Shown here: positions 32,207-50,250 of the stretch, piece by piece
How positions within the stretch are numbered: position 1 is the stretch's first letter
How the letters are laid out: each line of letters begins with the position of its first letter
Assembly (NCBI GenBank): GCA_963817895.1
Contig: CAWFQB010000001.1
Location: 128,001 to 192,000 of the forward strand
Length of the DNA stretch: 64,000 bases
Reading direction: 5' to 3'
Source: an uncultured Chthonomonadaceae bacterium
GTDB lineage: Bacteria; Armatimonadota; Chthonomonadetes; Chthonomonadales; Chthonomonadaceae
The notes under the pieces: model-generated
Databases searched by the model: none
Told to the model about the DNA's origin: nothing
What the model saw: only the letters and a program-made list of their open reading frames with translations
Position numbers and translations under genes: made by a program

Positions 32207-32392
32207 AACGTTGGCTCCTTTGCTTCGTGGCAACTCTTCAGCAGTCCCCGGCAAAAAATCTGTTGGGAACGGAAGGAATTTGCTGTTCCCGATGCTGAAT
32301 ACTCTTGCAAACGAAAACAGACCCAGAGCGTGACAGGATAACAAAGTTATCCTTCTTAACAGGGTTCAAGAGCAAGGAGCGATAGTAAGATC

Positions 32393-40381: not shown

Positions 40382-40768
40382 GTGGCAACACGCGAACAGG
40401 TTTATCTTTTCTGCTGGCTGTTGGCGATGTTATTCATCATTGCGGAAAAGCCCATTGAGGAAAAATACAGGCCGAACGGCAAACTTCGCGAACATCCGAA
40501 GATTTGTACCCGTTCCGAAGCGACTCTGGGTTGCGCGGCGATGGTCGTACCCTATTACTTCCTCTTTTTTGGAATTCGCCCGCCTCAAAACTTCGCGTGT
40601 TGGATTTGGGGCGTGAGCCTGTCTGCCGTGCCGTGTTTTGCCGCTATCTGGTACTGGCAGCGCAAGTATCCGCCCCAAATCGCCCGGTGGTTTCTCGCGA
40701 AACTCGGCACAGACTTTATGATGCGCGCGGTCATTCAAGGCATCTGGTGGCTATGGGTTTGGCATTGA
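40382..40768 (+). CDS. Hypothetical membrane protein
   Basis: GGAGG RBS with GTG start; 3-4 hydrophobic segments. Confidence 0.55.
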   Translation: MATREQVYLFCWLLAMLFIIAEKPIEEKYRPNGKLREHPKICTRSEATLGCAAMVVPYYFLFFGIRPPQNFACWIWGVSLSAVPCFAAIWYWQRKYPPQIARWFLAKLGTDFMMRAVIQGIWWLWVWH

Positions 40769-42001
40769 CATAGAGGCGGGCGGGTTTGCCGATTTCTTCG
40801 CCCATTTTGCTTCCAATGCCGGACGCTTAACCCGAATAAAGTGATCGGGCGCGGACGTGGTAACGCTCATTCCCATAAACATAGGCTTGCGCGGCATGTG
40901 ACAGCCCACGCAGCCGGTGCGGGGATTAACCGGGCAGACATTGCCGATTTCCGATTTTCGATTTTCGATTTTCGATTGAGTTCCTTCTTTTCCCTTTTCC
41001 CTTTTCCCTTTTCCCTGTCCCGAATGGCAACCAAGACACGCCGCTTCGTACTTGCGCATGTTGTGGGAGGTGTTCTGGTGGGGGTTGTGGCAGGTGTTGC
41101 AGGAGAGGGTATTCTTGCTCTCCTTGAAACAGCGGGACAGCATCAGGCCATACGGCTGGAAGCGGGACGTGACGCTCAGGTCGGGCGTATCGCCCACCGC
41201 CATGCCCGCCACTTCCGCGTTGCGGTGGCACTTGCCGCACAGGTCGTTGACCCGCTTCGCGTCCCATTTGCCGATACGCTCTATTTGTATATCCGCTGTC
41301 TTGCCGCTTTGCATTGCCGCAATGTGCGCCCCCCCGGCCCCGTGACACGCTTCGCAGCCCACGCCGTAGAATCGCTTTTCCGGTATGTTCGAGTCGGGCG
41401 GCAGCGTGGTGACGTGGCACTGGATACAGGAACGCGCCTCCTCGTCCCTGTGATCTACGCCCAGTGCCGTTCGGGAAATGTTCTTTTGTCCCGGCGTGAT
41501 TTTCCACTGATGCTGATTGGGAAAATAACTGGCGCGCATTTCAAAAACGTGGCTGCCCATCGGCGTCACATACGTCATGCCGCTTTTACCGGAACCAAGC
41601 GCGTACCGCAGCGGCCCCTGACCGCCCCCCGGCATCTGCGCCTGATAGCCATCCCCTACCTGTATGATCCGCGCTCTGGTTCCGGGTAACGGACCGGTTT
41701 TGGGCGCCAGTCTGCCCAAACTGATTTTATCCGCCGCATGGAATGTAATGGCGTGACGACTGGACTTGTGATCTCGAAACGCCTGCGCGTGACATCCGGC
41801 GCAAGCCTGATCGCCCACAAACACGGCAGTATCCCCCGTATCCGAAACCGGGGGAGCCGGGGCAACCGTCGCGTCTTTTACCACAGCGGCAGGCGCTACC
41901 GACGGCGCGTTATGAACGCAGCCCGCCACGCACAGCAGCAGGATAAAGGAGGCGACTATAAACAGGATAGTCGCGCGACAGGCGGAAAAGGAACGCATCA
42001 T
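40751..42001 (-). CDS. Multiheme c-type cytochrome (7 CxxCH), probable lipoprotein
   Basis: CAGCH, CIQCH, CEACH, CGKCH, CNTCH, CLGCH, CVGCH; lipobox-like VAGC. Confidence 0.92.
   Translation of the reverse strand: MMRSFSACRATILFIVASFILLLCVAGCVHNAPSVAPAAVVKDATVAPAPPVSDTGDTAVFVGDQACAGCHAQAFRDHKSSRHAITFHAADKISLGRLAPKTGPLPGTRARIIQVGDGYQAQMPGGGQGPLRYALGSGKSGMTYVTPMGSHVFEMRASYFPNQHQWKITPGQKNISRTALGVDHRDEEARSCIQCHVTTLPPDSNIPEKRFYGVGCEACHGAGGAHIAAMQSGKTADIQIERIGKWDAKRVNDLCGKCHRNAEVAGMAVGDTPDLSVTSRFQPYGLMLSRCFKESKNTLSCNTCHNPHQNTSHNMRKYEAACLGCHSGQGKGKREKGKEGTQSKIENRKSEIGNVCPVNPRTGCVGCHMPRKPMFMGMSVTTSAPDHFIRVKRPALEAKWAKKSANPPASMSMPNP
40945..41016. repeat. In-frame heptamer arrays (CGATTTT)n and (TTTTCCC)n inside the cytochrome gene
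   Basis: Encode GKGKREKGKEGTQSKIENRKSEI between hemes 6 and 7. Confidence 0.9.
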
Positions 42002-42239
42002 TACAACTCAGTTCATTTCAACTCATTGTGGCAATTTCGCGTAACCGTCGGCAGCAACACAGGATAACATACTTCCACATTGTAGCGCGAACAGGGTAAT
42101 TCGTCAAGGCGCGATATATTTTTCTGCGCAATATGAACATCCCCGGACTCTCCGCGTCTAAAATTATGCAGCCGGATAAAAGATTATCAGTCAGGTGAAA
42201 ACTGTTGAAAATATTCTGCGGACGAAGCAGGAATCCGGT

Positions 42240-42294
42240 ATGATAATAGTGTAAATAAGAGTTGACAAAGAATTTTGAAAAAATTCTTGCCAAC
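42240..42294. promoter_or_regulatory. Minus-strand promoter TTGTCA-N17-TATCAT plus adjacent palindrome (candidate operator)
   Basis: -35 at 42263-42268, -10 at 42240-42245; inverted repeat gttg..aagaattt-N5-aaattctt..caac at 42261-42294, in the divergent intergenic region. Confidence 0.5.
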
Positions 42295-42388
42295 GGGTGT
42301 CACGAAATTCGGAGCGTCTCGTACCGAGACAACAATGGAACGTTTTGGAAAGATTTGCGCTCTGAACGCCGTGTTGAGGAGAGTGCCC

Positions 42389-43978
42389 GTGGTCACGCAA
42401 AATAACAATTTAGTTTCGCGAACCGCCGTAACCGCCCGGAAATCTTCCGGCGAGATGTCACGCGCCGTTGCCGTCGCGGTGACGCCGCTGGAAGCGGCGG
42501 AAACCATATTTCGGCGCTTCGCGCCCCGCGCGATTTCGATACTGTCTAATCCGCGCACACTGGAAGATGGCCGGACGCTTCCCGCCCGCCTGAGCGCGAA
42601 TGACTGCTATGTGGCGATGGAAGAGGCGTGCCGGAAAATGGCCCGCGTAGCCCTGCGTAAGTTCGAGGGCGATACCACGCTGGAAGCGATTGGCTTTTCC
42701 GACGCGCTGGACGTGATCTTTCCCGATCCGCCCGCGTATCTGACCCGCTGTATCCGTTCCGTCGTCAGCGATGGCGAGCGCGTGACGCGCCGGGAAGTTC
42801 CCGCCGTTTCGATGGATCAGCCGATTGGCTTCAGCGGCGACGGCGACAACGCCCTGTGCCTGCGCGATACCATTTCGGACACGGACAGCAACGGGCAGCC
42901 CGAAACCGCTTTACTGGAACAGGACGACCGCCAGCGTTTCCGCAGCGCGCTGAACAACGCCCTGCAATCCATTCCGAAAAACTATCTGGAAGCCTTGCAG
43001 CGCGACATGTCCCGCTCCCGCGAACGCGAAGACGGAGCCAGAACCGCGCCCGAATCCGATAAGGAACGACAGACCGTGTGCCGCGCCCGCGCCGCCGTGT
43101 CGGAAATCCTCAAGCGCGAGTGCGGCCTGGACAATCCCTTCATACGCCAACTGGCGCAGCAGAGGAGCGGACGGGTGCGCCAAAAGCCAACGGCAGGGAA
43201 AAACACAGCCAACTGGACGGCGGAAAAGCAGAGCCATCTGTTTCAGCGCCTGCTCAACACCTCATGGCAAGATCGCGCCCAATCCGGCGCGAACCCGGAC
43301 GGCAACATTGAGGAGGCGATTGTTAACGACGTGAGCGGCAGCAGCAACGTCGCGCCGCCCTCGCCCGAAATGCGCCAATCCATGCGCGTGATGGACATGT
43401 ATTACCTGAACGAGCGCAAAACAGAAAATAATGACGCGCAGGAACTCTATAATCAGGCCGAAACCTCGCGACATCGTGGTAAAATAGAAGAGGCGATGCG
43501 CCTTTACCGGCAGGCGTATGAACTGGACCCGAAATATTTCGCCGCGCTTAACGAAGTGGGCCTGCTGCTGATGCAAACCGGGAACCTGCGGGACGCGCTG
43601 AAAGTCTATCTGACAATCGTAGAGCATCCCGAAGCGGGCGCGATCAAGTATGTGGCCGCAACCAATGCCGCGGATGTGTATCTGCACTGGTTTGACGCGG
43701 GCCGCAACAAAGAGCGCAACATCGAACGCGCCGCGTTTTATGCCAAAATGGCGATGCGCAAGCCGACACCCATGCGCGCCTGTAACCTGATTTTGGCGTA
43801 TGTGAAAGACCGATACTATACGGAAGCGCAGGAACTGATGAACACGGTTCTTCAAAGCAACCTGCCCGGCTGTCCCGCCGATAAGTTTTTGCAGACGCTG
43901 TTCCAAATCCGCGATGCCGATCTGGTATCATGGTGGAGTTGGCTGGACAGCGAAATGGGAAAGGATGAAGTCCGATGA
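42389..43978 (+). CDS. Divergent sigma70/ECF-like domain fused to a TPR domain
   Basis: GTG start 7 nt after GAGGAG; region-2-like PAYLTRCIRSVVSD, linker VSMDQP, region-4-like LNNALQSIPKNYLEAL...TVCRARAAVSEIL; TPRs EEAMRLYRQAYELDPKYFAALNEVG. Confidence 0.7.
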   Translation: MVTQNNNLVSRTAVTARKSSGEMSRAVAVAVTPLEAAETIFRRFAPRAISILSNPRTLEDGRTLPARLSANDCYVAMEEACRKMARVALRKFEGDTTLEAIGFSDALDVIFPDPPAYLTRCIRSVVSDGERVTRREVPAVSMDQPIGFSGDGDNALCLRDTISDTDSNGQPETALLEQDDRQRFRSALNNALQSIPKNYLEALQRDMSRSREREDGARTAPESDKERQTVCRARAAVSEILKRECGLDNPFIRQLAQQRSGRVRQKPTAGKNTANWTAEKQSHLFQRLLNTSWQDRAQSGANPDGNIEEAIVNDVSGSSNVAPPSPEMRQSMRVMDMYYLNERKTENNDAQELYNQAETSRHRGKIEEAMRLYRQAYELDPKYFAALNEVGLLLMQTGNLRDALKVYLTIVEHPEAGAIKYVAATNAADVYLHWFDAGRNKERNIERAAFYAKMAMRKPTPMRACNLILAYVKDRYYTEAQELMNTVLQSNLPGCPADKFLQTLFQIRDADLVSWWSWLDSEMGKDEVR

Positions 43979-44187
43979 AGACCGAAACTGTAACGCGGAG
44001 ATTGCGCCTGGTGGTAATGGTCGGCGCGCTTGCGCTGATGTTGGGAGCCGGAGCGAAAATCGCGCCGAACTCTCACCGTTCGGATGCGCCTACGGTCACG
44101 ATTTCCAGCGATGTCCTCAATGGCTCGCTTCAGATCGCGGATGGCAGCGAATCAACGGGTGGCGGCAAACCCAAGCCACACGGCTAA
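43975..44187 (+). CDS. Small secreted pro-peptide (70 aa)
   Basis: ATGA overlap with the upstream stop; Sec-type signal MKTETVTRRLR-LVVMVGALALMLGAGA; polar tail QIADGSESTGGGKPKPHG. Confidence 0.75.
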   Translation: MKTETVTRRLRLVVMVGALALMLGAGAKIAPNSHRSDAPTVTISSDVLNGSLQIADGSESTGGGKPKPHG

Positions 44188-44189
44188 GG

Positions 44190-44253
44190 AGTTGATAGTT
44201 CGTAGTTGATAGTTGATAGTTCTTGTGTGTCTATCAACTATAACCTATTAACT
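44190..44253. repeat. Inverted heptamer element (AGTTGAT)n ... (ATCAACT)n
   Basis: Begins 2 nt after the peptide stop codon. Confidence 0.8.
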
Positions 44254-44277
44254 TTCCAAGCCAGTATTCTATTGTTC

Positions 44278-44305
44278 AGCCCGCTTTCGCTTTAGAAAGC
44301 GGGCT
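44278..44305 (+). terminator. GC-rich hairpin after the peptide gene
   Basis: 11-bp stem agcccgctttc / gaaagcgggct; weak U-tract. Confidence 0.5.
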
Positions 44306-44357: not shown

Positions 44358-45338
44358 ATGCCTCGATGCGTGTTCTCAATTTTTGTGGGGGTTGCCGGGT
44401 TGTCGGCAACTTTGTCGCCTGTACAGGCGCAGCAGGCCGATGCCACGCTCCGGCTGATTCAGCAACAGCCGCCGGATCCGCCTGTTATCGGAATCGGGCG
44501 CAGGCAGCAGCGCAATGGCCTGGTTACCAATGAGGGACATACGACCGGATGGATACAAACGGAAACGCGGCGGATTGACAATGACCCGCACAAAGCGTAC
44601 GTGCTGCTCGCGCCGGGGGGACGGGGATACAACGGGCGGCGCAACGTCTTACGTTTTAACGATACGCCACGTCCATCGAACGACAAAGACACTGTGCCGG
44701 AGATGCCCTCAGCGGGTCTACTTGTGGTGCTGCCTCCGGCGGATGGCGACGGCACACTGGCCGCGCAATTCTGGGGCGAAGTGATGCGGAGCGTGCTGAA
44801 GGGCCGCTATTATGTAGCCGTTGCCGTCGCGCCGAAGTGGGCGGACGCGCAGACGTCTCCCTGGGTCACGGAAACTACCCTCAAACAGACGAAGGGAGCG
44901 ACCTTCACGACGGAAACCTTCGCGAAAGACATTGTAAACGACGTGAACACGGTTTACAACATTGATCCGCAGCGGGTGTTTCTGCACGGCGCGGCGGAAA
45001 GCGGATTGGCCGTATATGCCTGCTCCCTGGCGCCGCAAACGCCGTTCAAAGGGTTTTACATTCACGACGCGCCATTCCGCTCCGGGCAGTTGCCGCCCCT
45101 CGCCGCGTCACGCGGCAGGCGCTACTTTTTACAGCAGAGTCAGGACGACAAGACCGGCCCCCTGTGGATGGCCGAAGCCGCCCGCAAACTGCTTGGGGAG
45201 CGGGGCGCGACCGTAAAAGTGGCCCCCTATCACGGCACGGGCGCGTACAACTTTGCCGATAACAACCGCTGGGAACATTTAGGTGAGGCCATAACGTGGC
45301 TCGAATCCGGTTCCCAACCCATTGCCAAAATGAAGTAG
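44358..45338 (+). CDS. Secreted alpha/beta-hydrolase-fold protein with degenerate catalytic motifs
   Basis: Signal peptide (VQA); YNIDPQRVFLHGAAESG in place of GxSxG; YFLQQSQDD; C-terminal EAITWL. Confidence 0.65.
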   Translation: MPRCVFSIFVGVAGLSATLSPVQAQQADATLRLIQQQPPDPPVIGIGRRQQRNGLVTNEGHTTGWIQTETRRIDNDPHKAYVLLAPGGRGYNGRRNVLRFNDTPRPSNDKDTVPEMPSAGLLVVLPPADGDGTLAAQFWGEVMRSVLKGRYYVAVAVAPKWADAQTSPWVTETTLKQTKGATFTTETFAKDIVNDVNTVYNIDPQRVFLHGAAESGLAVYACSLAPQTPFKGFYIHDAPFRSGQLPPLAASRGRRYFLQQSQDDKTGPLWMAEAARKLLGERGATVKVAPYHGTGAYNFADNNRWEHLGEAITWLESGSQPIAKMK

Positions 45339-45566: not shown

Positions 45567-46502
45567 CTATTTTTTAGAGGCGAGTTCTTCGTAGGGCGGA
45601 GCTATTTCGCGAGTTCGAGAAACGTACATCGTTCCATGCCCGCCCGGCTTCGGCTGCGCGACAGCAGTATCTTCGATGATGCGTCCGCTGGCCCATAACG
45701 AATACTCTGTAAATCCCCTGTTGAGGGAATGGGCCAGTCGTATATCGGGATGATTGGTAAAGCCGCCCCGGAACCTGTTCGTCGATGCTCCGCGAAGTTT
45801 CGTAATTGGTTCCCAGGTAAACATGCATTCGTCTGCGCTCAGGAATTGAAGCGTTAGTCCTGCGCCCTCTTTCGGGAGAACGCCCGGCAGCGCGTCCCAT
45901 ACTTTTTGCAGCGATTCGGACTGGCTAAACCGATCCACAATCAGCATTTGACGCAACTCCGATTTGTGCTGCATGGCCCAGGGCTTCCACAAAAGGCGCA
46001 GTTGGTAGGCTTTCACGCGAAACTTTGCGCTGTCCTCCGGGCGAAACGCCGCAGGAGTTGCAGCGCCAGAAGGAACAACAGAGGGTGTTCGTATCTGCGG
46101 GCCGGTTAAATATACAAAAAGAGCATGTTGCAGATTGTAGACAAGTCTCGGCCCACATACCGCAACGACCAGTGCCGCGCTTACCGTCATCGCCCATATC
46201 CTGCGCCGTTGCCGTCTGCCCATATCGCCATTTCGATCAAGCACAACGTCTTCGTGAAACGTTTGTGGCATTTCCGCGCCGCTCAGTTCCGGCAGTCGCG
46301 CCATGAGCGCGGCGTAAACATGCGGTGGCGTGGCCTCCCTCGCCAGATTTTGCAAACCGGTTTCGATTTGCCGCATTTGTGTCTGTTCTTCCCGGCACTC
46401 TGGACAGGCGCGGCAGTGCCGGCGCAGTTTCCAGGCTTGTATCGGTGACAATCTTTCACTCTCACGCGAGGCAATCTGCGCGCGGCTCGGTTTGCTGCAC
46501 AT
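45567..46502 (-). CDS. Zinc-binding anti-sigma factor (zf-HC2) with TM and extracytoplasmic domain
   Basis: HCRACPEC (HxxxCxxC), TM IWAMTVSAALVVAV; overlaps the sigma gene, GAGAAGGAG RBS. Confidence 0.85.
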   Translation of the reverse strand: MCSKPSRAQIASRESERLSPIQAWKLRRHCRACPECREEQTQMRQIETGLQNLAREATPPHVYAALMARLPELSGAEMPQTFHEDVVLDRNGDMGRRQRRRIWAMTVSAALVVAVCGPRLVYNLQHALFVYLTGPQIRTPSVVPSGAATPAAFRPEDSAKFRVKAYQLRLLWKPWAMQHKSELRQMLIVDRFSQSESLQKVWDALPGVLPKEGAGLTLQFLSADECMFTWEPITKLRGASTNRFRGGFTNHPDIRLAHSLNRGFTEYSLWASGRIIEDTAVAQPKPGGHGTMYVSRTREIAPPYEELASKK

Positions 46503-47073
46503 CGTTGCACTCCTTCTCAACGGCGTGAAGCAGGGCTGCCATTTGCTTTTTTGCCTGCCACACGCGCCATTTGGTTGTCGTCAGCGGCTCGTTCATCACT
46601 TCCGCCGCTTCTCGTTGCGTCAATCCCTGCGCAGTGACCAGCAGCAGGGCTTCGCGAAAAAGCGGCTGCAATTGCGCCAGCGCACGTTCCAGAGTCAGGG
46701 CGTCAATCACGCCCGCTTCCATTCCGCCGCCACCCGCCACAGGCATAATCATAATTGTGGTTTCGGGTTCCCCACTCCATTCTTCTATGAATGGAACTGT
46801 TTCCGGCGCGTATTGGCGGCTGCGGTCACGCCACCGTCGGGACGCGATGCCGAGCAGCCATGTCAGCAGGCGCGAACGCCCCTGAAAGCTGTCGCGCCCC
46901 TGCCATGCGGCGAGAAACACCTCCTGCACAATGTCCTCCGCGTCGCTCCGGCTGCCGCTCAGACGCAGCGCGAAGCCCATCACGCGATCCGCATACTGCG
47001 CGTACAGCAGTTGAAAGCCGCGTGGATTGCCCGCCCGTATCAGTTGAAGCAGTTCTTGTTCGTTGTCCCGCAT
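46462..47073 (-). CDS. ECF RNA polymerase sigma factor
   Basis: DAEDIVQEVFLAAW, FQGRSRLLTWL, GLTQREAAEVM..PLTTTKWRV. Confidence 0.93.
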   Translation of the reverse strand: MRDNEQELLQLIRAGNPRGFQLLYAQYADRVMGFALRLSGSRSDAEDIVQEVFLAAWQGRDSFQGRSRLLTWLLGIASRRWRDRSRQYAPETVPFIEEWSGEPETTIMIMPVAGGGGMEAGVIDALTLERALAQLQPLFREALLLVTAQGLTQREAAEVMNEPLTTTKWRVWQAKKQMAALLHAVEKECNDVQQTEPRADCLA

Positions 47074-47160
47074 AAAATTTGCCCTCACCTACTTGGTAGC
47101 GGAAGGGGCGGAAATAGTTAGTGGCTGACGGCTACTATTTAATGCCGAATGAGAACTTCA

Positions 47161-47220: not shown

Positions 47221-50200
47221 CTAATGCTTGATGCCTTCATCCTCTTTCGATTGTGGGGCGAGAACGCGGTAGGGACGCACGGCCTGCGTCAGCCCTTTCA
47301 CCTGTACCGGTTCGCCGACCACGAACACAAAGGCGTCTCGCGTCTCCTGAAAAACCTCTTCGCTGACGATAATATCCCCGCCATTCGCAATAGATTGCAG
47401 GCGCGCGGCCACTACGACCGTCAGGCCCATCGCGGTATAGTTCACCTGCTGTTTGGAATTGCCCACCAGCCCGACAATCGCGTCGCCATAGTGCAGGGAG
47501 ATGCCGAAATTGAGTACGGGTTTGCCGTTTCGCGCCTGCCACGTAGATAGGGCGAGTACGGCTTCGCGCATGGCAAGCGCGGCGCTGACGGCCCGCGAAA
47601 TGTCTTCCTGTACAGCAAGCGCGGCTTGCTCTGTTCGCGTAGTCTCTTTTTGTTGGGAAGGAGTAAGCTGAAAAAATGCCATCAGGCCATCCCCTGTGTA
47701 TTTATCCAGAATTCCGCCATGCGCGTGCAGCGCGTCCGTGAGCGCGGTCATGTAAGCGTTGATAACCTCCAGAACTTCCGTTGCGTCGTGCTGCTCGGCA
47801 AACGCGGTGAACTGGCGCGCGTCGGCGAACAACACACAGATTTTCTCGCGAACGCCGCCCATTTGCAGTTCCTGCCCGTGCTGTTTCAGCCACGCCTGTA
47901 GCATGTGGGGAGCCACAAACCGCCCGAACAGTTCCGACACGCGCAGTTTGTCCACCCGTTCGCGCGTAAAGCGGAACTGCGTGGCAAGCGCGGCGGTGGC
48001 TGCCATTGTCAGCAGAGGAAGCACGGGATCAAACCAGTAACCGCCCAGGAGATATTCCGCAATGCTGCCTGCAATCACGAGAAACAGCGGAATCAGCAAT
48101 CGAATCGCGGATTCCAGCGGCTCATGCCGCGCGCAGGTATAGCCAACGGCCATGCCGAGCAGCAGCGTGAGGAGTTCAAATGTGAGCGGTGGCGCGCGTT
48201 GAAAGGCTTCCTGCGACAACAGAGTGGCGGTGGCATACGCCTGCGCTTCGGGCAGGGTCATCACCCCGGCAGACGTGGAAACCATCGGATGCGGCGTTGA
48301 ATCCAGAAACACCACGCGCCCGCGCAGCATGTCTGCGGCAGGTTTCCATTCTCCCTCCGCTTCCCCGGAATCCTCTGAATCCTCTGAGTTTTTCGGCGGC
48401 TGCAAACCCTGCGGTTTGCCAGGCGGCGTTGGCGGCGGAGGCGCGGCAGGATGTTCCCCGGTGGCGGCAGGACGCAGCGAAAGCATGGGCGCGTTGGCGC
48501 GGACTTCGGCATAGGTGGCGCGCAGAAAGTCCTCGCGCGGCCCCTCGCCGACAAAATCAATCATTACGCTGTCCGGGTATACCTGCGGTCTGGCGCAGCC
48601 GGGAATGTCGCGCAGGGAGGTAAGTTGAGGGTTGAAAATTATGTCTTTCCCATGTCCTTCCCGCTCTGCGGGTGGACGCCCGGATTGAGGGGCGTGTCCT
48701 TCTCCCCGTGTTGACGCCCCGATGATAGGTGGAGGGTTACTGTTTGCAGGTGGATGCGCGCCGGCAGGGGGCGTGTCGGGCAGGGTTGCCGGCTGGCTCA
48801 AAGGCAAAACCGTTTGAAGATCGGCGCACAGCAGGGCCGGCAGGGGCGGTCTTCCCGTCCAGGTTTCGGGCACAACGGGCAGATAGGTGGCAGGGGAACG
48901 GAGCATTGTCGCGTTGCCCACAGTGGGCGCGGCTGTTTCCAACCGTTGTATGATGGTATCGTCGGCATGGGCGATGGGAGGGACCGCCAGCACAACATCG
49001 GGTGAGCGGCGTAGTACAGCGGCCAGTCTGCCCGCGTCGCGCCGGTTCCGCTCCACATCATGGCTGTTAGGAGCCAGTCCCTCGTTGCGGGATGTCCAGG
49101 TGTCAATCATCCGGTTGTACAGATAGGGCAGGGGCAGAACGATACGCGCCGCGCCCCGTTTGCGCAGCAATTCGATCATGTCCGCCTGCACCGCAGCTTC
49201 GGACCGCTGACTCGCGTCATACCGCGTTTGCGCGTCCATGCGCAGGATAACAAATCGGTCGCGCGGGCCAGGAGCGGGCCGCATGAGATGGGGCAGCGAA
49301 ACAAACGGCAGGTTTCGCGCCGTATGAAGGCGCGTGAGCGTTGTCAGGGCAAGGCTTTGCAGGGGGCCGGTAAACCGGGGCGGCACATTCAAGACCAGTG
49401 TGGCAATCGCAAGTCCCAAAACGACGCCGCGCAGGTCGAGCGTGTAGAGCGTTTTGTCCGTCGCCCGTTTTGTCCCGAAGGAAGATATGGGTATGCGCCA
49501 GCGCCATACAAGGCATCGGGTAAGCGCGCGGGTGAAAGGCTGAAGCCAGTGACGCAGGGGACGCGCCGAGCTTTGCAGCGTGTGGATATACAGGCGCGTC
49601 AGCAGAGGGAAACTAAAAAAACACAGGCTTAATCCCAACATATCCAGACCCGGATTGTCCGGCGTGAACGTTAGCGCGAGCATAAACACGATGGCGGACG
49701 CCATGCTGAGAGTGATTCCGGCGCGGGCGGAGCGTTCGCTGTCGCCACTCCGCCTGCCCGCAAACGAACCGATGGCCGCGCCGAGCAGGGCGATCACCCA
49801 AAAAACGCAAAATAGTGCGAACCAGATCGGCAGCAGCCAGATAGCGCCGTTGGCATCCACTTCACCGGGCGCTACAGAAATCGTGTTCAGATTGTTCAGG
49901 GCTTTGTACTGAACGGTATAAATCAACAGCCCGCCGATAACGGACAGGCAAACGGCCCACCGCAGGGCGCTGTCGCGAGTGTGCCACACGGCCCGCCCGT
50001 GAACCATAACCCACACAGCGGCAATCAGGCCGTAGCCGATGTTCAGGGATATCCAGATTCCTGTCAAGCCCTGCCGCCAGTGAGCCGACACCATCGCGGC
50101 AAGAACCACCATTACCAGAAGGGCGCGCTCCGCCATGCGCAGCCGGGGCCGCCAGTGTTGCCACCATGCGCCAATCCGCAGGCGCAACCCCGGACGGCGC

Positions 50201-50250
50201 GGGGCAAGTTCGGAGGATACAGGCAGAGACTTATCGGGGTTTTCATTCAT
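47221..50250 (-). CDS. Class III adenylate/guanylate cyclase with N-terminal multi-TM region and CHASE2-like domain
   Basis: ELFGRFVAP, VLFADARQFT, LDKYTGDGLMAFF, ISLHYGDAIVG, AARLQ, VKG; 3 TMs precede the cyclase domain. Confidence 0.88.
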   Translation of the reverse strand: MNENPDKSLPVSSELAPRRPGLRLRIGAWWQHWRPRLRMAERALLVMVVLAAMVSAHWRQGLTGIWISLNIGYGLIAAVWVMVHGRAVWHTRDSALRWAVCLSVIGGLLIYTVQYKALNNLNTISVAPGEVDANGAIWLLPIWFALFCVFWVIALLGAAIGSFAGRRSGDSERSARAGITLSMASAIVFMLALTFTPDNPGLDMLGLSLCFFSFPLLTRLYIHTLQSSARPLRHWLQPFTRALTRCLVWRWRIPISSFGTKRATDKTLYTLDLRGVVLGLAIATLVLNVPPRFTGPLQSLALTTLTRLHTARNLPFVSLPHLMRPAPGPRDRFVILRMDAQTRYDASQRSEAAVQADMIELLRKRGAARIVLPLPYLYNRMIDTWTSRNEGLAPNSHDVERNRRDAGRLAAVLRRSPDVVLAVPPIAHADDTIIQRLETAAPTVGNATMLRSPATYLPVVPETWTGRPPLPALLCADLQTVLPLSQPATLPDTPPAGAHPPANSNPPPIIGASTRGEGHAPQSGRPPAEREGHGKDIIFNPQLTSLRDIPGCARPQVYPDSVMIDFVGEGPREDFLRATYAEVRANAPMLSLRPAATGEHPAAPPPPTPPGKPQGLQPPKNSEDSEDSGEAEGEWKPAADMLRGRVVFLDSTPHPMVSTSAGVMTLPEAQAYATATLLSQEAFQRAPPLTFELLTLLLGMAVGYTCARHEPLESAIRLLIPLFLVIAGSIAEYLLGGYWFDPVLPLLTMAATAALATQFRFTRERVDKLRVSELFGRFVAPHMLQAWLKQHGQELQMGGVREKICVLFADARQFTAFAEQHDATEVLEVINAYMTALTDALHAHGGILDKYTGDGLMAFFQLTPSQQKETTRTEQAALAVQEDISRAVSAALAMREAVLALSTWQARNGKPVLNFGISLHYGDAIVGLVGNSKQQVNYTAMGLTVVVAARLQSIANGGDIIVSEEVFQETRDAFVFVVGEPVQVKGLTQAVRPYRVLAPQSKEDEGIKH

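Follow-up and report, generated by a model that had tools for sequence, protein, structure and literature searches.

A conserved gene pair of the Chthonomonadales encodes a candidate peptide-responsive sigma factor and its predicted exported propeptide

We analyzed a 64,000-nucleotide (nt) stretch of DNA, hereafter the window, from an uncultured Chthonomonadaceae bacterium of the phylum Armatimonadota (GenBank assembly GCA_963817895.1, contig CAWFQB010000001.1, positions 128,001 to 192,000). Two of its genes encode a receptor-like protein, in which a divergent sigma70-like domain is followed by tetratricopeptide repeats (TPR), and a small propeptide (Table 1). A first-pass annotation had proposed that the pair forms a new peptide-signalling system. 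Both open reading frames (ORFs) lie where it had placed them, the receptor stop and the propeptide start share an ATGA overlap, and the motifs it had quoted are all present (AYLTRCIRSVVSD, SMDQP, ALQSIPKNYLEAL, TVCRARAAVSEIL, AALNEVG, AATNAAD, RACNLIL and LQIADGSESTGGGKPKPHG). The Shine-Dalgarno site of the peptide gene lies inside receptor codons, from which the two genes are predicted to be translationally coupled, and GGAG-type sites ahead of GTG are seen in many homologue upstream regions. The hairpins noticed earlier downstream of the peptide gene are two stem-loops (-45.7 kcal/mol, z -6.97; 0/200 shuffles equally stable), likely a terminator or mRNA stabiliser, and long stems are also found downstream of most homologous peptide genes. 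An Rfam scan of the window gave no match, and in the host genome (G000) the peptide gene was found in one copy only. RNA contigs of relatives (~92% identical), for which DNA is not excluded, extend over 42290-44283 in one run, and one contig spans the receptor end and the peptide gene. The contigs reveal neither start nor strand nor level and were left out of the support.

Table 1. Features of the gene pair and its candidate regulatory sites (window coordinates; aa, amino acids; ECF, extracytoplasmic function)
Feature	Position	Strand	Remarks
Sigma-like/TPR receptor gene	42389-43978	+	GTG start, 529 aa, without signal peptide
Propeptide gene	43975-44187	+	ATG start, 70 aa
Ribosome-binding site GAGGAG 5' of receptor GTG	42376-42381	+	sequence
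Shine-Dalgarno site AAAGGA of peptide gene, within receptor G-K-D codons	43960-43965	+	
Divergent sigma70/ECF-like domain, residues ~33-245	42485-43123	+	helices like those of sigma2, with insertions; linker SMDQP; sigma4-like part
Recognition helix with RQxxxRAR (R227, Q228, R232-R234)	43058-43123	+	
Conserved linker, residues ~276-340	43214-43408	+	invariant columns; model interface list
TPR domain, residues ~348-528	43430-43972	+	Asn ladder N388/N426/N466, E389, D429, R463
Specificity position 395 of receptor, within TPR domain	43571-43573	+	
Predicted Sec signal peptide of propeptide, residues 1-27, ending GAGA	43975-44055	+	heuristic only
Conserved core DGSESTG (consensus DGQETHG), predicted ligand	44140-44160	+	
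Two stem-loops 3' of peptide gene	44188-44255 and 44278-44305 (span 44188-44305)	+	
P1, upstream ECF-type promoter-like site TGAAC-N16-CGTCTA	42134-42160	+	
P2, promoter-like site TGTCAC-N16-CGTA, ECF41-type	42298-42323	+	predicted autoregulatory promoter
Second TGTCACG-N15-CGTT site, candidate regulon promoter	32310-32335	-	
Candidate target, a 159-aa protein with signal peptide and many R/D/H/Y residues	31727-32206	-	129 nt after site

Among 301 Armatimonadota genomes searched, the receptor gene was single-copy in 34/34 sampled genomes of the Chthonomonadales, an order of soil bacteria, and found at E<=1e-20 in 0/267 from outside that order. Of 7997 candidates scored in a protein search, 186 were homologues, several of them labelled Chthonomonadaceae and most of the full-length ones 500-560 aa long; in viral contigs (IMG/VR), 0/90 candidates could be confirmed as relatives. 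A small ORF follows the receptor in 65/65 genome loci whose downstream DNA could be read (of 67 inspected, two run off the contig), in 4/4 further loci, and in 60/60 readable metagenome loci (65 examined; left out were one cut receptor, one weak unrelated match and three loci with <=70 nt downstream). This coupling, which the first-pass annotation had named as a check of its proposal, is far beyond chance. The offset from receptor to peptide gene is -11 to +9 in 64/65 readable genome loci and ~+64 in one, and reaches +69 in metagenome loci. Since the flanking genes vary between clades and no conserved modifying enzyme or transporter was found among the neighbours of the pair across clades, we regard the pair as a stand-alone two-gene unit. 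One distant homologue (P0134; 498 aa, 35-37% identity, full length) has several peptide-groove residues altered; its locus was searched for and not found, and it may have another peptide as its partner or belong outside the order.

Once duplicates had been removed and receptor fragments filtered at 250 aa, we had 88 pairs, of which 35 were new. Their propeptides are 48-106 aa long (median 65), and a K/R-rich start with a hydrophobic stretch is seen in 88/88, as judged by a charge and hydropathy heuristic that does not tell cleavage from anchoring; one is lipobox-like and three are twin-Arg-like. A Shine-Dalgarno-like site for the peptide gene is present in 81/88 pairs, often inside the last codons of the receptor, and xK[DE] occurs within the last 9 residues of 68/88 receptors. 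The propeptides carry a core, (D)GxE(T/S)xG, which is usually DGQETHG; the window peptide, with DGSESTG, is of a minority type. G57, E59 and G62 are invariant, and because all synonymous codons are used for these residues, the core is conserved at the protein level. The metagenome peptides agree, 58/60 fitting G-x-E-[TS]-x-G and the other two being one-residue variants. In total there are 19 core types, with DGQETHG as the first core in 40/88 propeptides. The tail had been put forward as the signal; its conserved portion is the core (D56-G62) and not the GGGKPKPHG end, as 30/88 propeptides stop at the last Gly of the core; a likeness to the 'AD..' of PapR proved incidental. The core is repeated in 9/88 propeptides, and tandem core repeats are known from Phr propeptides (PMC11343458). 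Propeptide L171 has two different cores, EGSESHG and DGQETHG, next to a receptor with Ser395, and L137 has three related cores; cross-talk between peptide types is possible in these multi-core propeptides.

The C-terminal part of the receptor is TPR-like, as had been read from its helices, with Pfam TPR_2 matching residues 350-383 (E 2e-9) and Pfam TPR matches spanning residues 350-412. We modelled the TPR part (residues 272-526) with peptide residues 31-70 from their own alignments, in three runs and with three controls. The interface score (ipSAE) was 0.00, 0.73 and 0.67 (median 0.67), and the best of the three controls scored 0.00; in calibration the ipSAE mark was reached by 116/157 solved pairs and 2/215 mismatched pairs. 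The runs have at least 10% of contacts in common, and the partner had a predicted local distance difference test score (pLDDT) of 28-49. The PDB contains many TPR-peptide complexes, so resemblance to them may account for part of this result. Modelled peptide residues 54-66 contact N388, E389, M395, T425, N426, D429, M462, R463 and N466, and the peptide also touches linker residues 314-316 and 334-343. N426, D429, R463 and N466 are present in 88/88 receptors and N388 in 82/88. The core is thereby predicted to sit on N388/N426/N466, E389 and R463 within the groove of the TPR domain, which accords with the earlier proposal of binding through TPR asparagines; such an asparagine ladder contacts the peptide in RRNPP receptors. 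From the same model, the linker (~276-340) is likely to relay peptide binding to the sigma domain. We consider it very likely that the peptide binds the TPR domain. Six receptors (L025, L026, L175, L188, L164 and L165) have Asn at position 389, four of them with the core NGQETHG.

Peptide residue 58 and receptor residue 395, which are in contact in the complex model, vary together, as the earlier proposal of a conserved, co-varying tail had anticipated. Gln58 occurs with Ser395 in 59/60 pairs, the remaining one being Gln-Cys, and non-Gln58 with non-Ser395 in 28/28, a total of 87/88 concordant pairs (the two-core peptide L171 was scored as Gln; a fragment dropped from the 88 pairs, L181, is a second Gln-Cys case). 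Over the first 53 pairs, receptor position 395 was the best of 496 columns for peptide position 58 (phi 0.96, next 0.59). It was also the best among 255 columns scanned, where the next best had 13 mismatches, and the rule holds in 35/35 pairs outside the discovery set. In a tree for which those columns had been masked, the trait changes 8-9 times. For peptide His61 against receptor 339/342/430 there are three contrasts, which are suggestive only.

The N-terminal domain is predicted to fold into two helical parts with an extended linker between them (residues 31-262, pLDDT 84). With hhalign we compared it to a profile of 34 sigma factors from G000, picked by Pfam and not by the receptor query, and obtained a probability of 92% (E 5e-7) over regions 2.3 to 4.2, compared with 1% for the TPR part and 0.3% for a reversed alignment. 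A separate hhalign probability of 98.5% was set aside as circular, the sigma factors there having been chosen by the same profile. Foldseek listed 45/46 rows from sigma-factor entries, weakly (best E 0.059), and in VIA region 4 (sigma4) of SigL ranked first (Z 6.5, root-mean-square deviation 3.8, 73 aligned). SigL was also top in a search of PDB sequences with the N-domain (E 0.15), and when 1.84 billion proteins were searched, sigma70 region 2/region 4 proteins made up the four weakest matches to the full profile after the family (E 3e-4 to 8e-4). In the ESM Atlas unnamed clusters came first and sigma70 clusters at 0.94, a lead only. These are weak, concordant signals for a sigma2-linker-sigma4 fold, none of which clears a threshold alone. 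The RQxxxRAR helix is invariant in 87/87 receptor rows with letters and occurs in 8/10 ECF41 proteins from other Armatimonadota; RQxxxR[AS][RK] was found in 0/51 other sigma ORFs of G000, some of which are cut short in this 81% complete genome. The domain thus resembles ECF sigma factors weakly and is likely ECF-derived, in keeping with the sigma-like landmarks first read from it, at a level below Pfam cut-offs.

The promoter-like motif P2 (TGTCAC-N16-CGT) lies upstream of the receptor gene in 50/53 loci (shuffles: mean 0.64, max 3), one of the three misses having just 143 nt upstream, and in 16/17 held-out metagenome loci, which brings the total to 66/70, with both boxes at fixed spacing. Its form is TGTCAC[G/A]-N15-CGT, in which base 7 is G in 37/48 and A in 11/48 sites and the last base varies; the ECF41 promoter consensus is TGTCACA-n16-CGTC (PMC3426412). 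A two-part promoter with CGT at -10 through which the gene regulates itself is a trait of ECF sigma factors; P2 has this form and is predicted to be read by the receptor. A P1-type site, [GAC]AAC-N16/17-CGTCT, is present upstream of P2 in 30/53 loci (shuffles: mean 0.39, max 3) and is likely read by a separate stress-type ECF; this second ECF-type site farther upstream suggests priming by another ECF.

In G000, 16/57 sites precede a ribosome-binding site and a signal-peptide ORF, compared with 26/601 for eight control spacers, 8/73 for spacer 17 and 23/600 for random places. The raw motif count in G000 at spacer 16 is without clear excess (54 vs 30-83), and the signal emerges only with downstream-gene or cross-genome controls. 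In three further genomes of the order (G261, G294 and G268), 15/40 sites precede such an ORF vs 1/20 controls (20 of 22 G261 sites taken; own sites of G294 and G268 left out), and there are target families that recur across families of the order. A 19-nt spacer, used in place of a reversed-pattern control judged unsuitable, gave 88 matches vs 212 for the 16-nt spacer in 28 order genomes (25/28 singly; kin are not independent) and 61 vs 50 in 22 genomes outside the order (7/22 singly). TGTCAC-N16-CGT is enriched ahead of exported-protein genes in receptor-bearing genomes only. The candidate targets include YHS, FKBP isomerase and FecR-domain proteins, unnamed small exported proteins and one five-gene Opp/Dpp-type ABC operon (L206:2580-8563, minus strand) encoding a 697-aa binding lipoprotein, which has the motif upstream in 6/9 genomes with upstream DNA. 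The R/D/H/Y-rich candidate target in the window has no Pfam or NCBIfam match, and its G000 paralogues and G261 homologues carry the same TGTCACG-N15-CGTT site. ECF41 was found in 0/34 order genomes (seven candidates scored in each, in a search that did not take in ECF103), and ECF42 in 10/41. We think it likely that the receptor is itself the sigma factor for these promoters. A small exported family with 'ASEEG(K/R)RN' after the signal peptide lies downstream of the motif in G000, G261 and G294 (L209:432-755, L233, L239, L245 and L249; two families of the order) and has no Pfam match.

Given an order-wide coupled pair and predicted peptide binding, these bacteria therefore likely switch secreted-protein genes with a peptide signal of their own. 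In the mechanism that we favour, the propeptide would be exported by Sec, trimmed to ~7-10 residues around the core and returned through an oligopeptide ABC transporter. The core peptide would then bind the TPR groove and move the conserved 276-340 linker, and this movement would most likely turn the sigma domain on at TGTCAC-N16-CGT promoters. The outputs would be the pair's own operon, giving positive feedback, numerous small exported proteins and, in part of the family, the Opp/Dpp operon. The pair is real and conserved, its features agree with one another, and we read it as export-reimport peptide signalling with a likely sigma-factor output. We regard as reasonably probable a sigma factor that is controlled by its own peptide after export and re-import and that activates these promoters with positive feedback. 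Of its parts, the return of the ligand from outside the cytoplasm has a good chance of being right, we lean towards activation rather than inhibition by the peptide, and whether the peptide acts between cells seems to us evenly balanced. A tentative further reading, which we place a little below even, is a one-component cell-to-cell system in a diderm phylum and of RRNPP-independent origin, in which a sigma factor is switched directly by its own pheromone, with 19 peptide types, a 58/395 specificity code and a positive loop through its own promoter and importer. The interpretation of the first-pass annotation is supported by these results, and release, re-import and switching are what we infer.

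A number of findings weigh against this mechanism. One of the three complex runs scored 0.00, and there are just four independent 58/395 contrasts on supported branches, all concordant (p 0.125), so that the co-variation falls short of significance because the contrasts are too few. Model and co-variation are also not independent, because the model used alignments that hold the co-variation. As DGQETHG is common to 40/88 pairs across families, kin specificity would be low. The host is diderm, since G000 encodes Omp85 and LpxC, and no outer-membrane route for the peptide was identified. The binding-protein family SBP_bac_5 was found in 36/41 order genomes and not in five, four of which are 92-97% complete and receptor-bearing, and the site-bearing subfamily is present in just 10/41; the genomes of L025 and L026, whose receptors have Asn389, are also without detected SBP_bac_5. 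On the sigma side, Pfam matched no sigma family to the window protein at E<=1 (PF04542, PF04545 and PF08281 unmatched), 1/49 N-domains matches Sigma70_r2, at E 0.011, and an NCBIfam scan for sigma families stayed below cut-offs. The Foldseek match is weak, and the VIA Z of 6.5 falls within the background range. The match to the 34-sigma profile is limited to regions 2.3-4.2. The usual core-binding motif of region 2.2, DxxQ(D/E), is not evident in the N-domain, and the first helix of the helix-turn-helix (HTH) is remodelled. The domain falls outside the formal ECF filter because region 2.2 is unmatched and this helix remodelled, ECF membership being defined by the presence of Pfam sigma2 and sigma4 domains (PMC7826278).

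The main rival shares binding and output with the mechanism above and keeps the loop private to the cell: the propeptide would bind the sigma-TPR protein when Sec stalls, or cycle through the cell's own periplasm, and so report export capacity or outer-membrane integrity and not neighbours. Such a cell-autonomous monitor of secretion or the envelope would suit the mostly exported candidate targets, among them FKBP isomerase, YHS and FecR-domain proteins, as well as the diderm envelope, the core nearly fixed throughout the order, the receptor-bearing genomes without detected SBP_bac_5 and the stress-type ECF promoter upstream in 30/53 loci. The repeated cores (9/88), the 19 core types with matched receptor changes and the promoter site ahead of the Opp/Dpp operon, however, fit a released and re-imported signal better; we consider the monitor rather unlikely.

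Peptide binding would also be retained if the N-domain were a sigma-derived regulator other than a sigma factor (an activator, a repressor or a competitor for core RNA polymerase) and another order-specific ECF read TGTCAC-N16-CGT. We judge this improbable. It draws on the sub-threshold sigma scores, unclear region 2.2 and remodelled HTH, on the 81% completeness of G000, where some sigma ORFs are cut short, on a CGTCAC site that lies 422 nt upstream of one sigma ORF among 51, and on ECF103, which was left out of our search and likewise uses TGTCACAA (supplement of PMC7826278). Set against it are the site before the receptor gene in 66/70 loci, with both boxes at fixed spacing, a helix motif that is the same as in TGTCAC-reading ECF41, the failure to find ECF41 in 34 genomes of the order, the 0/51 other sigma ORFs with RQxxxR[AS][RK], and a motif excess that follows the range of the receptor. 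Very improbable, in our view, is a small protein that is merely co-transcribed and acts as no ligand, being membrane-anchored or akin to a ribosomally synthesised and post-translationally modified peptide (RiPP). A signal peptide judged by heuristic only and low peptide pLDDT in the complex model would allow it, whereas residue-level co-variation at a modelled contact and invariant groove residues speak for a ligand; with no conserved modifying enzymes or transporter near the pair, the RiPP reading was rejected.

In its layout the Chthonomonadales pair is like the RRNPP(A) systems (Rap-Phr, NprR-NprX, PlcR-PapR, AimR-AimP; PMC10075063, PMC9765709, PMC11343458), in which a cytoplasmic TPR receptor is followed by a small Sec-type propeptide gene. 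It is also like them in its C-proximal conserved core, tandem core duplications and receptor-peptide co-variation, and in the Opp-type importer present in most Chthonomonadales genomes. RRNPP(A) systems are recognized by a propeptide of 10-100 aa, Sec secretion, adjacent genes, a TPR receptor and a receptor length of 250-500 aa (PMC10075063). Three of these five features are found outright here (small, adjacent, TPR) and Sec secretion is predicted by heuristic, whereas the receptor, at 529 aa, is above the range. RRNPP receptors are defined by an N-terminal HTH and/or three-helix bundle as output (PMC9765709), in contrast to the ~230-residue sigma-like output domain of our receptor. The receptor further differs in having about five TPR-like hairpins, in being a single-copy chromosomal core gene and in its host, a diderm Armatimonadota and not Bacillota/Firmicutes or mobile elements. 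Residues 340-527 match TPR folds with Z up to 14, the top matches being generic TPRs, and no RRNPP chain was among the top structural matches of the whole model, a result that speaks neither for nor against homology to RRNPP receptors. We therefore describe the pair as working like RRNPP without assigning it there, because these comparisons showed no specific link between its TPRs and RRNPP receptors.

ECF42 (Sven_0747, ECF-10; PMC8999054, PMC7826278) combines a sigma domain with a C-terminal TPR extension of ~200 residues, similar to residues 348-528 of the receptor, and this extension is thought to control the sigma domain through partner binding. Here, by contrast, the partner is a co-encoded predicted exported peptide. 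The DUF6596 domain is linked to ECF42; the receptor has no match to it (PF20239) and no conserved YCII neighbour, and the sole PF20239 match in G000 is another gene, a true ECF42-type. With ECF41 (PMC3426412) the receptor has in common the promoter TGTCAC(A)-n16-CGT(C), the RQxxxRAR helix, a fused regulatory extension and the lack of an anti-sigma gene. Unlike ECF41, it has a TPR and not a SnoaL extension, no COE neighbour and a candidate regulon of many exported proteins vs one neighbour; its N-domain has no overall profile match (hhalign probability <1%), a further point against the proposed sigma output, and TIGR02957 is not among its NCBIfam matches. The receptor belongs to neither group; its architecture is similar to that of ECF42 and its promoter to that of ECF41. 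A literature search, from which subscription journals were mostly outside coverage, returned no paper on this system and 0 matches for 'GQETHG', and the terms Armatimonadota or Sigma70 were not found in the supplement of PMC10075063. The earlier statement that no system with this type of receiver, or in this lineage, has been described thus agrees with the literature searched.

Divergent from the receptor gene in the window is a 416-aa multihaem cytochrome c (40751-42001, minus strand), a neighbour that is not conserved. On the other side, a 326-aa signal-peptide protein without Pfam match follows (44358-45338, plus strand), and ORFs related to it lie directly 3' of the pair in 11 loci (duplicates counted). 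Farther on, 45567-47088 (minus strand) holds the gene of an ECF sigma factor of ordinary type (46462-47088, Pfam r2 and r4_2) and then that of a 317-aa protein, which has a hydrophobic segment and, close to the N terminus, a CxxC, and is likely to be a zinc anti-sigma factor. Beyond these is a 1009-aa membrane protein that appears by eye CHASE2-adenylate/guanylate cyclase-like (47221-50250, minus strand).

If the proposed mechanism is true, the pair would be a direct fusion of peptide export-reimport sensing with ECF sigma switching, with no anti-sigma factor or kinase between them. Descriptions of the export-reimport design have so far been confined to Gram-positive bacteria and to regulators of other kinds, and such peptide signalling in a double-membraned lineage was not found in the literature searched. 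The pair would also name a ligand class for TPR-extended sigma factors such as ECF42. The proposal can be tested directly: it defines a ligand of seven residues, a consensus for the promoter and a set of candidate target genes, it predicts which residue sets specificity, and one genus of the order, Chthonomonas, is in culture. A sigma factor that a peptide can induce, and of which variants occur in nature, could also be put to use as a synthetic-biology switch.

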